Virus record (IMG/VR): IMGVR_UViG_2541047441_000021
Reading direction: 5' to 3' (one strand)
DNA length: 5,806 nt
From: a virus
Taxonomy: Duplodnaviria > Heunggongvirae > Uroviricota > Caudoviricetes
The notes beneath the pieces are model-generated. The model was given only the letters and a program-made list of their open reading frames with translations. It ran no database searches and was not told the origin of the DNA. The translations under genes and the position numbers were made by a program. Below, piece by piece: positions 2,274-5,074 of this stretch. Every line of letters begins with the position of its first letter. Positions within the stretch are counted from its first letter, which is position 1.

Positions 2274-2825
2274 ATGAATGCAGCTCAATCATCTTTGGAT
2301 GAGGGAAAGCTAGTAATTGCTTACTCTGATAAGAATGGCTCTACAGTAGGGCTGGAATTTTCTTCTGTAGCATCAAGCCAAGCAACGCTCTTGATGAAAG
2401 CTTGTTCTGTTGCTGCTTCAGATAAAGAAAAACGGATTGTCACATCGGTTGTGATGGATGATACTGAGATCATTCAAACAACAAGTGATGATGGAGGCGA
2501 CGACATGGATAAGCGATTAGCAGTTCTTGAAGCTGAAGTTGCGCACATCAAGAGCAGCATGGCAGGAATTAAAGAGGATACCCGGAAAATATCTTCTGAT
2601 TCTACTGACGCCAAAAGAGACACCGCTGTACTTTTACAGAAGAGCCTGGATTTTGATGCTTCATTATCTAAGAAACCATCGGTTGACTACTTTGAAGCTA
2701 AATTTTCCGCTTTGGAAACCAAGATAGCAGATGTAAAAGTATGGATGCTCGGGGTTCTCTTGGCCTCGCTTGCTATGCCAACTATATTTTTCCTAATAAA
2801 CTTGTACCTTAAGAAAGGTCAGTAA
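2274..2825 (+). CDS. Hypothetical coiled-coil protein with a single C-terminal transmembrane anchor (183 aa); second gene of the accessory cassette
   Basis: Starts 6 nt after the upstream stop, so probably translationally coupled; acidic linker TTSDDGGDDMD; heptad-like segment KRLAVLEAEVAHIKSSMAGIKEDTRK; hydrophobic C-terminus VWMLGVLLASLAMPTIFFLINLYL followed by KKGQ; followed by an intrinsic terminator. Confidence 0.65.
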   Translation: MNAAQSSLDEGKLVIAYSDKNGSTVGLEFSSVASSQATLLMKACSVAASDKEKRIVTSVVMDDTEIIQTTSDDGGDDMDKRLAVLEAEVAHIKSSMAGIKEDTRKISSDSTDAKRDTAVLLQKSLDFDASLSKKPSVDYFEAKFSALETKIADVKVWMLGVLLASLAMPTIFFLINLYLKKGQ

Positions 2826-2834
2826 TTTAGCAAA

Positions 2835-2858
2835 TCCGGCCACCGAGCCGGGTTTTTT
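2835..2858 (+). terminator. Intrinsic terminator ending the cI-cassette transcription unit
   Basis: GC hairpin CCGGC-caccga-GCCGG (2836-2851) followed by TTTTTT (2853-2858), 10 nt after the stop of the 183-aa gene. Confidence 0.7.
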
Positions 2859-3069
2859 ATTGCCCGCCGATCACTATCAGGACAGCACCTGCCCGCCGGT
2901 CCAAACTATTGATTAAATTACTATAATTCTTAATACAACTCCCATATCCCGCCATCTCGCCACCACCCCATTCGCTCGTTTTTCGAACTTTTCAGCACCC
3001 ATCCTGCTGTTGCCACCGACTTAAGTAAGCAAAACCATCGCGGGTAAAACTATTTACACAAAAAAATCA

Positions 3070-3139
3070 TACACATAACGTGTCACACCTTTATTTTACA
3101 CATTTTGTGATTGACCATTAAATCACAATATGTGACTAT
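3070..3139 (+). promoter_or_regulatory. OL/pL: -35 TTGACC (3111-3116), 17-bp spacer, -10 GACTAT (3134-3139); operator-like palindromes at about 3070-3088, 3096-3112 (TTACACATTTTGTGATT) and 3121-3137 (AATCACAATATGTGACT)
   Basis: Consensus-like sigma-70 elements seen directly, interleaved with the same ATCACA/TGTGAT half-sites as OR; located upstream of nutL and N. Confidence 0.65.
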
Positions 3140-3227: not shown

Positions 3228-3337
3228 CCAGAACTTGAGTGGTTTTGGGGATGGCGCGAATTGCAGCTGCAAGACAGCGATCGAGAAGATAAACACCTCG
3301 ACGCGTCATGCGCCAAAGCCACTTAAAGGAGACCATC

Positions 3338-3610
3338 ATGGTAACCATTGTCTGGAAAGAATCCAAAGGTACGGCAAAAAGCCGCTACAAAGCTCGCAGA
3401 GCAGAACTTATTGCCGAGCGACGCAGTAATGAAGCACTGGCGCGAAAAATTGCGCTAAAGCTCTCTGGTTGCGTCAGAGCAGACAAAGCAGCATCACTCG
3501 GAAGCCTTCGCTGCAAGAAGGCAGATGAATGCAGTGGAAGTATTTGCCTGCCAAACGTAGCCATTTACGCGGCAGGCTACCGGAAATCAAAACAACTGAC
3601 GGCGAGATGA
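3338..3610 (+). CDS. N: N-family transcription antitermination protein (phage-21-type arginine-rich motif)
   Basis: ATG at 3338 with RBS AAGGAG at 3326-3331; N-terminal MVTIVWKESKGTAKSRYKARRAELIAERR is an arginine-rich boxB-binding motif that I recall as the phage 21 N peptide; downstream of pL/nutL. The ORF track's start at 3308 lacks an RBS. Confidence 0.85.
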   Translation: MVTIVWKESKGTAKSRYKARRAELIAERRSNEALARKIALKLSGCVRADKAASLGSLRCKKADECSGSICLPNVAIYAAGYRKSKQLTAR

Positions 3611-3626
3611 TAAATTAATTTGCTAA

Positions 3627-4208
3627 TTACTTGTTTTTGCCATGCTTATCCTGAGCGATAAGTTCATCCATAAGACTGTCTTTCTTCCCAGCAAACCTAA
3701 TGTAGCACTCATTTCTATAGCGTTCCGGGATAACAAAACGGTCGATTTCAGGATATCCAGTAGCAGAAGGTACCCGAATAAGAAGCCCTTTTTCGAGCAA
3801 TGAGATTGCTTCAGGGCTTCCCTTTTCTGTCTTTAGCTGGTTATTAGCGGCTACAGCGAATGCCAAATACGCTCTTTCTCCAAGAGTTAACGAATCAAAC
3901 AAATCTTGCACGTATTTCTCTTCTTTAGATTTGCGCTTCTGAGCAGCGAATATCTCAATTCTTTCAGTCACAGCGTGATAAGCGGAATTAACAACGCCGT
4001 TAAGCACATAGCTAACGCAAAACAACAGGATGTAATACATCCAGTAATGAGGAAGGATTTCTGGATTATGCAGGTTTATCCATTCTTTTACGCTTACAGG
4101 CATAACAATAATCAATATAATCAGGATGATTAGCATATGAATCAACTGTTTAAGTGTCATTCCTTGCAGGAAAAAATGCATTAGTTCCTGCCACCATGAG
4201 TTGTTCAT
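3627..4208 (-). CDS. sieB: SieB-like superinfection exclusion membrane protein (convergent with N)
   Basis: 193-aa ORF; N-terminal hydrophobic segments (LIHMLIILIILIIVMPV, YWMYYILLFCVSYVL); size, position between N and ea10, and orientation opposite to the pL operon all match lambda sieB as I recall it. Confidence 0.7.
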   Translation of the reverse strand: MNNSWWQELMHFFLQGMTLKQLIHMLIILIILIIVMPVSVKEWINLHNPEILPHYWMYYILLFCVSYVLNGVVNSAYHAVTERIEIFAAQKRKSKEEKYVQDLFDSLTLGERAYLAFAVAANNQLKTEKGSPEAISLLEKGLLIRVPSATGYPEIDRFVIPERYRNECYIRFAGKKDSLMDELIAQDKHGKNK

Positions 4209-4468: not shown

Positions 4469-4837
4469 ATGTCAAACATCAAAAAATACATCATTGATTA
4501 CGACTGGAAAGCATCAATAGAAATTGAAATCGACCATGACGTAATGACAGAGGAAAAACTTCACCAGATTAATAATTTCTGGTCAGACTCTGAATACCGA
4601 CTCAATAAACACGGCTCTGTATTAAATGCTGTATTAATCATGCTGGCGCAACATGCTCTGCTTATAGCAATTTCAAGCGACTTAAATGCATATGGTGTTG
4701 TGTGTGAGTTCGACTGGAATGATGGAAATGGTCAGGAAGGATGGCCTTCAATGGATGGTAGCGAAGGAATAAGAATTACCGATATCGATACATCAGGAAT
4801 ATTTGATTCAGATGATATGACTATCAAGGCCGCCTGA
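4469..4837 (+). CDS. ea10: Ea10-like protein (lambda early-left gene; putative ssDNA-binding function)
   Basis: 122-aa ORF, the size I recall for lambda Ea10; RBS GAGGA 9 nt upstream; immediately upstream of cIII as in lambda. The protein sequence itself is not recalled, so identity rests on size and synteny. Confidence 0.6.
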   Translation: MSNIKKYIIDYDWKASIEIEIDHDVMTEEKLHQINNFWSDSEYRLNKHGSVLNAVLIMLAQHALLIAISSDLNAYGVVCEFDWNDGNGQEGWPSMDGSEGIRITDIDTSGIFDSDDMTIKAA

Positions 4838-4909
4838 GTGCGGCTTTACCGCATACCAATAACGCTTCACTCGAGGCGTTTTTCGTTATGTATAAATAAG
4901 GAGCACACC

Positions 4910-5074
4910 ATGCAATATGCCATTGCAGGGTGGCCTGTTGCTGGCTGCCCTTCCGAATCTTTACTTGAACGAATCACCCGTAAATTACGTGACGGATGGA
5001 AACGCCTTATCGACATACCTAATCAGCCAGGAGTCCCAAAGAATGGATCAAACACTTATGGCTATCCAGACTAA
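4910..5074 (+). CDS. cIII: CIII, inhibitor of FtsH-mediated CII degradation
   Basis: Translation [54 protein letters not shown] (54 aa) matches lambda CIII as I recall it; RBS AAGGAG at 4898-4903. The ORF-track start at 4838 is an upstream in-frame extension. Confidence 0.95.
   Translation: MQYAIAGWPVAGCPSESLLERITRKLRDGWKRLIDIPNQPGVPKNGSNTYGYPD

Follow-up and report, generated by a model that had tools for sequence, protein, structure and literature searches.

A repressor-linked gene pair in the rexA/rexB slot of a Shiga toxin 1 prophage encodes a tail-anchored coiled-coil protein with a candidate internal start

Which genes does the Shiga toxin 1 (Stx1) prophage of E. coli O157:H7 carry in the slot that lambda fills with rexA and rexB, and what might they do there? 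The question was approached on a 5,806-nt stretch of Caudoviricetes DNA (IMG/VR record IMGVR_UViG_2541047441_000021), called the window below, to which all coordinates refer. Two genes, A and B, follow the cI repressor gene on its + strand. Gene A (1986–2267; ECs2991/Z3359) encodes a protein of 93 aa, and gene B (2274–2825; ECs2992/Z3360/H0053) a protein of 183 aa and 19.8 kDa. In B, a small N-terminal domain is joined to a coiled-coil module ending in a single transmembrane (TM) helix. The C-terminal module defines an unnamed, mostly Enterobacterales family and is the constant half of two-gene cassettes found at sites of prophage-expressed genes.

Over the 1 kb of the window that was tested, the DNA is 100% identical to VT1-Sakai, the Stx1-converting prophage known as Sp15 in E. 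coli O157:H7 Sakai and as CP-933V in EDL933, and 99.5% identical to the laboratory phage HK544. By sequence, then, the window is identified as the immunity region of VT1-Sakai (Sp15/CP-933V), and family scans place the surroundings of A and B in the lambdoid immunity and early-left region. HK544, named 21 times in the Tai paper, serves there as a challenge phage only. The deposited annotations of VT1-Sakai (AP000400) and HK544 give the gene order cI, A, B, the terminator t_imm, oL/pL, nutL and N, so that A and B, unnamed in both phage records, fill lambda’s rexA/rexB slot. The first gene of the maintenance operon is cI (1216–1863, + strand), with a helix-turn-helix (HTH) and a peptidase S24 domain (Pfam HTH_3 and Peptidase_S24, the latter at 3e-26); AP000400 annotates it together with pRM and the operators. 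No promoter-like site was found between cI and A in a sequence scan. Gene A has a Shine-Dalgarno sequence, AGGAG (1974–1978), 7 nt ahead of its ATG, and that of full-length B, GAGGA (2259–2263), lies within the 3' end of A, 10 nt before the B start. The A stop codon (2265–2267) and the B ATG at 2274 are separated by 6 nt, a gap which implies translational coupling. Downstream of B, the intrinsic terminator t_imm (2832–2861, + strand), a 9-bp stem with five G-C pairs followed by a T-run, ends the cI–A–B transcript; HK544 labels it Timm, and AP000400 makes it the terminator of the pRM transcript. On the far side the slot is bounded by the oL operators and the pL promoter (3069–3139, + strand; AP000400 annotation moved to window coordinates). 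It is thus directly supported that B closes the cI–A–B maintenance operon of the Stx1 prophage.

The initial annotation, made from the letters of the DNA, had described B as a tail-anchored membrane protein in which a coiled coil follows an N-terminal domain and an acidic linker. This description now has the backing of sequence statistics, structure prediction, family conservation and published fractionation, with an N-terminal domain of about 60 aa. The open reading frame runs exactly as claimed from the ATG at 2274 to 2825 on the + strand, 183 aa, and all the quoted peptides lie at the implied places in B: the acidic linker TTSDDGGDDMD at residues 69–79, the coiled-coil segment KRLAVLEAEVAHIKSSMAGIKEDTRKISS at 80–108, the hydrophobic helix VWMLGVLLASLAMPTIFFLINLYL at 156–179 and KKGQ at 180–183. 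AlphaFold2 (AF2) modeling from an 18-sequence family alignment yielded strands at residues 10–18 and 24–33, a helix at 34–48, disorder at 59–75 and helices at 78–132 and 137–182; with a mean predicted local distance difference test (pLDDT) value of 65 and a predicted template modeling (pTM) score of 0.22, the confidence is modest and the relative placement of the parts carries no meaning.

Along the + strand, the N-terminal domain (residues 9–58; 2298–2447) is a conserved, minimal beta-hairpin plus helix, modeled at a pLDDT of about 72–76. When the B model was compared with the PDB and with predicted viral structures, the best hits reached only E = 0.1–0.25, and no informative fold match emerged. 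The amphipathic helix of the domain carries Cys44 (2403–2405; motif MKAC44S), nearly invariant in full-length B homologues. An acidic and Gly-rich linker follows (residues 59–77; 2448–2504), predicted to be disordered (pLDDT below 50 over 59–75) and containing G74, G75 and D76, which are invariant across the family. Residues 78–132 (2505–2669) comprise the head motif and coiled-coil helix 1. This helix ends at the KKPS break (residues 133–136; 2670–2681), seen in the AF2 model and, within the conserved LSKKPS, in the family consensus. Beyond it lie the juxtamembrane coiled-coil helix 2 (residues 137–155; 2682–2738), the C-terminal TM tail anchor of the ‘NLYLKK’ type (residues 156–179; 2739–2810) and the dibasic tail KKGQ with the stop codon (2811–2825). 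The heptad positions of helix 1 (L82, L85, V89, I92, M96, I99, (T103), I106) are spaced by 3 and 4 in alternation, and the same spacing in helix 2 (F140, F144, L147, I151, V154, M158) runs on into the TM helix. For each of the two segments the a/d enrichment was reached by 0 of 5000 shuffles, and the AF2 helices coincide with the periodic stretches at residues 82–106 and 140–158, so that the coiled coil claimed earlier is borne out.

The membrane anchor is confined to the C-terminus. Kyte–Doolittle (KD) 19-residue windows above 1.6 occur only within residues 154–180, with a maximum of 2.15 at 157–175, and none was found in residues 1–150; the peak is moderately unusual for the composition alone, being equalled by 52 of 2000 shuffles. 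The hydrophobic helix is kept in every B homologue retrieved. Since no hydrophobic segment, signal or TM, is present at the N-terminus, B fits the tail-anchored class, with a cytoplasmic N-terminus and only KKGQ beyond the membrane. The E. coli tail anchors ElaB and YqjD likewise end in a dibasic patch (PMC5525287). [quoted passage not shown] Within a subtype the TM helix is the best conserved segment (column identity 0.79 versus 0.51–0.62 elsewhere), with polar Ser, Pro and Asn residues retained as well, which suggests more than a passive anchor.

Published data sets cover the fractionation of B and the expression of both genes. In a shotgun proteome of O157:H7, Z3360 was found at the full-length mass of 19.8 kDa, and only in the membrane/Triton-micelle fraction of size-exclusion chromatography (APEX 858 versus 0 in the later, soluble fractions), a fraction that also contains large soluble complexes (PMC3210124). 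Its mRNA reached log2 values of 11.8–13.0 on an EDL933 microarray, where most other prophage genes in the table lie at 5–8, and rose about 2-fold when rpoS was mutated (PMC2907692). An O157 rumen-fluid proteome contained the A protein (ECs2991, 10 kDa; PMC3936929). That both A and B are expressed, and abundantly, in uninduced lysogens is directly supported, and such expression is expected because the genes sit on the repressor transcript.

The C-terminal module extends well beyond this prophage. No Pfam, NCBIfam or PADLOC model matched B; over its full length it falls into phrog_12602, a group of unknown function, and phrog_3556 in addition covers the C-terminal two-thirds. A phmmer search of 1.84 billion representatives returned 56 relatives, most of which are 93–150 aa long and align only with about residues 70–181 of B, and a search with a profile of the module collected 127 clusters, nearly all from Enterobacterales with a few from Pseudomonas, every one ‘hypothetical’. 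The order of elements is a Gly/Asp-rich run, the head motif M-x-x-R-[LIV]-A-x-L-E-x-[DE]-V-x-H-I-K, the coiled coil, the LSKKPS break, a second short heptad stretch and the C-terminal TM helix. Among 34 diverse members R81 is invariant, and A83, L85, E86, V89 and I92 are at least 90% conserved. When B, A, these 34 members and 11 alternative partner proteins were scanned against Pfam, NCBIfam and PADLOC, the only returns were sub-threshold, generic coiled-coil matches of family members (FlaC, Lpp, SlyX, DUF2730, CCDC90-like, XhlA) and, for a Cys-rich partner, a weak CpXC/Zn-ribbon hint. This modularity and the wider cassette family had escaped the initial annotation, as had the conserved internal ribosome-binding site and start at Met78 described below.

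To describe the genomic setting, 58 module-containing loci and annotated phage records were surveyed; a scan of genome contigs yielded only two loci. Almost without exception the module protein is encoded by the downstream gene of a coupled pair, whose spacing mostly falls between −44 and +30 nt, and the gene upstream encodes either A or one of three unrelated partner types, among them a Cys-rich protein of 112–132 aa and a beta-rich one of 143–166 aa; the alternative partners matched nothing in Pfam or PADLOC. With the Cys-rich and the beta-rich partners, only a 25–47-residue N-terminal peptide precedes the Gly run of the module protein, whose start in most cases overlaps the partner's stop or directly adjoins it. 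A covariation of partner type with these short peptides was considered and dropped, as the BLAST clustering is confounded by the shared Gly run and only the pairing of A with the B-type N-terminal domain is clean. The pairs lie mostly directly downstream of an S24/HTH or short HTH repressor, confirmed by Pfam in 10 of 10 cases tested, and the neighboring repressors are of the cI type or the RacR type, or correspond to P22-like mnt, with the pair on its sieA side. In the Rac-like case the leftward genes are ydaT and ydaS, and the rightward ones encode the RacR-like repressor, a 152-aa partner and the module protein. The P22-like Salmonella phage UPF_BP1 (locus L064, 2048–2785) carries a 94-aa partner and a 149-aa module protein in immI, downstream of mnt and convergent with ejection gene 16; P22 itself has sieA and orf59a beside mnt on the same side (PMC10883804). 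A few copies of the module are morons within tail-gene clusters (L053, L055, L058, L060; phage 29485). In three of these tail clusters (L053, L058, L060), the module proteins contain extra tandem repeats of about 11 residues (e.g., ...NKIQSVESSL...) between the head motif and the TM helix, which extend the coiled coil to 180–221 aa.

Partner A is tied to the N-terminal domain of B rather than to the module. A homologue of A lies directly upstream in all 22 loci with a B-type N-terminal domain, even at 39–42% identity. The A–B cassette itself was found in 108 of 5426 complete E. coli genomes, with O157:H7 predominating, and stands behind at least six different repressor alleles, which indicates that it moves independently of immunity specificity. 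A has no hydrophobic segment and is beta-rich with a C-terminal helix; it matched nothing in Pfam or PADLOC and belongs only to phrog_12039, and its AF2 model (mean pLDDT 46) is unreliable and too poor for fold searching. The initial annotation had seen in DxNG-type stretches a weak hint of a common fold of A and B. Such stretches are present in both proteins and sit on a beta-hairpin turn in both AF2 models; the profiles of A and of the B N-terminal domain are nevertheless unrelated (hhalign probability 0.2%), and the common fold was rejected. A relationship of A to the 94-aa partner of UPF_BP1 was discarded at the same probability of 0.2%.

Next to the boundary between the N-terminal domain and the module, B contains a possible second start. 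An internal ribosome-binding site, GGAGG (2493–2497, + strand), precedes the in-frame ATG of Met78 (2505–2507) by a 7-nt spacer and is at least equal in quality to the annotated start (GAGGA, 10 nt). Initiation there would give a short isoform of 106 aa and about 11.6 kDa, the bare module, with the N-terminal peptide (f)MDKRLAVLEAEVAHIK; the preceding residue is Asp, so this peptide would be non-tryptic. In 18 of the 25 distinct DNAs from homologues, GGAGG stands 4–12 nt ahead of the conserved ATG, compared with 9.2 ± 2.4 under synonymous resampling (0 of 5000 resamplings reach 18), a statistic that overstates independence because the 25 DNAs are mutually related. The neighboring Gly codons do vary (GGT 38, GGA 34, GGC 24, GGG 14). 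At the protein level, the invariant Arg follows a Met by 3–5 residues in 146 of the 153 proteins that contain the head motif, at distance 3 in 93 of them and at distance 4 in 52, and six of the seven proteins without it have Val or Leu instead; since the distance varies, the Met tracks the end of the Gly run and not a fixed structural register.

Database annotations point in the same direction. Many homologues are deposited as starting exactly at the Met aligned with Met78, and six short entries are exact suffixes of longer entries of the same gene, from which it follows that annotation pipelines disagree on the start. The long form for its part is real, because the frame upstream of the internal ATG is open for at least 28 codons in 31 of 31 distinct loci (the longest of the three frames in 28). 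B therefore carries the signature of dual-start genes, a conserved in-frame internal start with its own Shine-Dalgarno sequence, and a gene producing forms of 183 and 106 aa would be the simplest reading of these sequences. An internal promoter for the short form is not claimed: the best candidate is a weak match, TTGTCA-17-GATACT (2437–2465), in a region with 2 promoter-like hits versus 3.7 in shuffles. As a separate observation, Klebsiella Rac-like prophages differ in the G-run before the internal ATG, which is G7 in L061 (2975–3000) and G8 in L062 and L063. The G7 version severs the N-terminal peptide from the module by a frameshift and leaves only the internal start usable; the difference may reflect homopolymer slippage (phase variation) or an assembly error.

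What could such a pair do in a lysogen? The initial annotation had placed B in a defense context and called it a plausible membrane-targeting effector. The first part stands as genomic context only, through the rexA/rexB slot and through relatives in other repressor-linked slots, including the sieA side of mnt; the second, with oligomerization and permeabilization, is one reading among several. We consider the A–B cassette probably anti-phage in some way, and propose with moderate confidence that it is expressed in the lysogen as a defense against phages, in which B is the subunit that acts at the membrane; the pair would act against superinfecting phages, as RexAB and SieA do in the same slots. 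It would then be a superinfection-exclusion or abortive-infection cassette, an analogue of RexAB by position and by its soluble/membrane layout and not a homologue.

How B might act is more tentative. We hypothesize that the variable partner, here A, binds the variable N-terminal part of B and gives specificity or restraint, and that infection by another phage would alter the restraint imposed by A. The coiled-coil/TM module could then form higher-order parallel oligomers that compromise the inner membrane, and the resulting depolarization would halt the infection. The 106-aa Met78 product may assemble together with the long form and so adjust the threshold. Dual-start holin/antiholin pairs, and likewise SieB/Esc, are tuned by a short co-assembling isoform. 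A membrane-permeabilizing mechanism is favored here by the heptads that run in register into the TM helix, by the conservation of this helix within a subtype and by the possible short isoform. Regulated oligomerization of the module into a membrane-compromising assembly is the mechanism that we favor, although the odds are somewhat against it.

Several points weigh against an anti-phage, membrane-acting B. Literature searches by locus tag, slot and architecture brought up no functional study or phenotype for A, B or their relatives, which appear in gene lists only and as ‘hypothetical’ throughout, and PADLOC, covering known and candidate defense systems, matched neither A nor B nor the alternative partners. 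The abundance of B in healthy lysogens means that it is not constitutively toxic, and any toxicity in growing cells would have to be tightly gated; a constitutive short isoform devoid of the N-terminal domain would escape control by A, which is awkward for a module acting as a toxin. The single TM helix is uncharged and followed by only four residues. Close B homologues carry wholly different TM types, as expected of an interchangeable anchor, and this swapping fits an anchor as well as a pore. The AF2 model is uninformative on oligomers, and use of the internal start is inferred from DNA statistics of non-independent sequences.

Several of the same observations suit the alternative that survives best, in which the module is an oligomeric anchor or spacer that holds the N-terminal part and A at the cytoplasmic face, for a Sie-type, non-lethal exclusion in which incoming phage DNA, ejection proteins or a host entry factor would be intercepted and the membrane left intact. 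Free exchange of TM types among close homologues and the abundance of an evidently harmless B in lysogens are what a tether would predict, and partner and N-terminus vary as expected of active or target-binding parts. One relative occupies the exact sieA position of P22-like phages, convergent with the ejection-protein gene 16, and the linker together with the 55-residue helix would place the A/N-domain complex several nanometers below the membrane. Yet with four periplasmic residues B has no means of meeting an injection conduit outside the cytoplasm; conservation of the head motif and of LSKKPS goes far beyond the needs of a spacer, the TM sequence is the most conserved segment within a subtype, and neither A nor the other partners have a recognizable DNA- or protein-binding domain. 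On balance we regard a pure tether as rather unlikely.

A more ambitious version of the membrane-acting model would make A–B the founding case of modular prophage immunity cassettes, in which a dual-start module has its long form coupled through the variable N-terminus to an interchangeable sensor and the isoform ratio or co-assembly triggers permeabilization upon superinfection, a holin/antiholin-like switch put to defensive use beside the repressor of many Enterobacterales prophages; in this full form the idea is unlikely to hold.

Lysogenic conversion offers a different explanation, namely that B modulates host physiology, such as stress tolerance or translation, like ElaB/YqjD/YgaM, or acts in prophage maintenance or induction. 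B is indeed built like ElaB and YqjD, in that the cytosolic part is helical, one TM helix is present at the C-terminus and the end is dibasic, and these host tail anchors tether and inactivate ribosomes (bioRxiv 10.1101/2024.08.16.608256). Constitutively high expression and the roughly 2-fold rise of Z3360 mRNA in the rpoS mutant would also suit a conversion factor. No sequence relationship to DUF883 or another host family was found, however; the family is essentially restricted to repressor-linked prophage slots and moron sites, and the quick swapping of partners and N-termini resembles arms-race diversification and not housekeeping. This explanation is accordingly held to be unlikely.

Less probable still is a role as an XhlA-like lysis accessory, which would aid or regulate a holin during lytic growth in the way that XhlA works with XhlB in B. 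subtilis PBSX, where lysis requires XhlA together with XhlB and XlyA (PMC5589764). XhlA and B share their build, in which a C-terminal TM helix comes after a short coiled coil; sub-threshold XhlA hits were obtained for four family members (best E = 0.003), and the module profile aligns with an NCBI-named ‘hemolysin XhlA’ at 97% probability, over the 33-residue head motif only. B itself has no XhlA hit (E <= 0.1), however, and relatives named ‘XhlA’ reach 23–25 bits where the gathering cut-off is 34.7. No lysis cassette is among the surveyed positions, which are immunity or moron sites, with B itself between cI and the terminator, and B is expressed in uninduced lysogens, when lysis genes are silent. 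Finally, the proposal of an atypical lipoprotein modified at Cys44 (MKAC44S), made in PMC3210124 for the membrane-fraction behavior of Z3360, is hardly credible despite its co-fractionation with lipoproteins and membrane proteins and the near invariance of Cys44 in the full-length family, as no hydrophobic leader precedes the residue (the study itself scores ‘no hydr LS’), residues 34–48 are predicted to form an amphipathic helix within a folded domain, and the C-terminal TM helix, in a protein which that study listed as having no predicted TM domain, accounts for the fractionation alone.

An anti-phage cassette with a membrane-acting B remains our preferred reading, and its interest lies in the site. 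The repressor-adjacent slot is the classic home of exclusion genes (rexAB, sieA), and A and B reside there with no name, domain family or PADLOC model. If the pair is anti-phage, it would represent a new defense family with an unusual effector layout, consisting of a tail-anchored coiled coil, a swappable partner and possibly a second isoform, and it could affect the range of phages, other Stx phages among them, that superinfect lineage I strains of O157:H7. A microarray comparison of O157:H7 strains detected ECs2990–2995 (cI, A, B, N, sieB) in 93% of lineage I strains and in 0% of the other two groups (PMC1890555), which makes the cassette a lineage marker. Should the pair have no anti-phage role, a major pathogen would nonetheless have in B an abundant membrane protein that calls for explanation.

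The remaining genes of the window complete the lambdoid picture. On the − strand, family scans identified cII (478–774) and cro (889–1146). Beyond the operators lie N (3308–3610, + strand; Pfam N_peptide 5e-17), a full-length sieB (3627–4208, − strand; Pfam SieB 1e-25) and a DUF2528/Ea10-like gene (4469–4837, + strand; Pfam 2e-47), after which family scans place gam and bet. AP000400 labels the DUF2528/Ea10-like gene ‘single-stranded DNA binding protein’; in Pfam and PHROGs it belongs to a family of unknown function. The sieB gene lies about 800 bp past B on the opposite strand, and two separate exclusion functions may therefore share the region. Where the cIII/kil region starts, an Rfam search recovered the lambda cIII thermoregulator RNA element (4897–4955, + strand; 88.5 bits, E = 3e-21). 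From t_imm to oL, the spacer (2826–3060) has no open reading frame of 40 aa or more, and its + strand is strongly C-rich (GC skew down to −0.41); elsewhere in the family this position holds a small convergent gene of 65–89 aa (e.g., L021, L027, L033, L049, L051).

The known systems compared with B include host proteins and lysis proteins. Like B, ElaB, YqjD and YgaM (DUF883) have no signal peptide, a helical cytosolic part, one C-terminal TM helix and a dibasic end, and YqjD needs its N-terminus as well as dimerization in order to function (bioRxiv 10.1101/2024.08.16.608256). In the same preprint they are chromosomal stationary-phase genes that block ribosomes, whereas B is prophage-borne, with an obligate partner and a modular N-terminus, and has no sequence relationship to DUF883. 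XhlA (PF10779) shares with B the coiled coil followed by a C-terminal TM helix, and the head motif in the form R-[VI]-A-K-L-E-x-D-V-x-x-I-K is common to the B family and to NCBI-named XhlA proteins. In contrast to XhlA, B is about twice as long, with an extra helix, LSKKPS and the N-terminal domain, and scores below the family threshold; it is encoded in an immunity operon and expressed in lysogens, whereas XhlA belongs to lysis cassettes.

The exclusion proteins SieA and SieB of P22 are, as predicted for B, inner-membrane proteins expressed in lambdoid or P22-like lysogens (PMC10883804). Compared by features, SieA has three predicted TM helices and acts alone (PMC10883804), whereas B has one TM helix and a constant partner gene. 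The sieB gene of the window gives the Pfam SieB match noted above, whereas B has no Pfam SieB hit. Ranade and Poteete are said to have described in 1993 that sieB makes a shorter in-frame product, Esc, which counteracts SieB; the PHROG label ‘inhibits SieB’ agrees with this account, and the arrangement parallels the proposed Met78 isoform.

The nearest counterpart by position is RexA/RexB of lambda, which occupies the very slot of A and B, bounded by cI and t_imm and followed by oL/pL and N, and is likewise transcribed along with the repressor from pRM/pRE. Both systems consist of two genes, one for a soluble and one for a membrane protein. RexB is polytopic, with four TM helices, and RexA has about 280 aa, compared with the single C-terminal TM helix of B and the 93 aa of A, and the cytosolic coiled coil, Gly-rich linker and internal start of B have no Rex counterpart. 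A and B show no sequence similarity to RexAB, with no PADLOC match at E <= 1 and no Pfam hit, but whether PADLOC contains RexA/RexB models was not separately checked. The structural observations on B are solid and the family-level pattern is new; the function is one that we infer entirely. In kind, A–B is an already familiar object, a repressor-linked two-gene prophage cassette with a membrane component, and what is new is a sequence, an architecture and a possible dual-start logic that match no described system.

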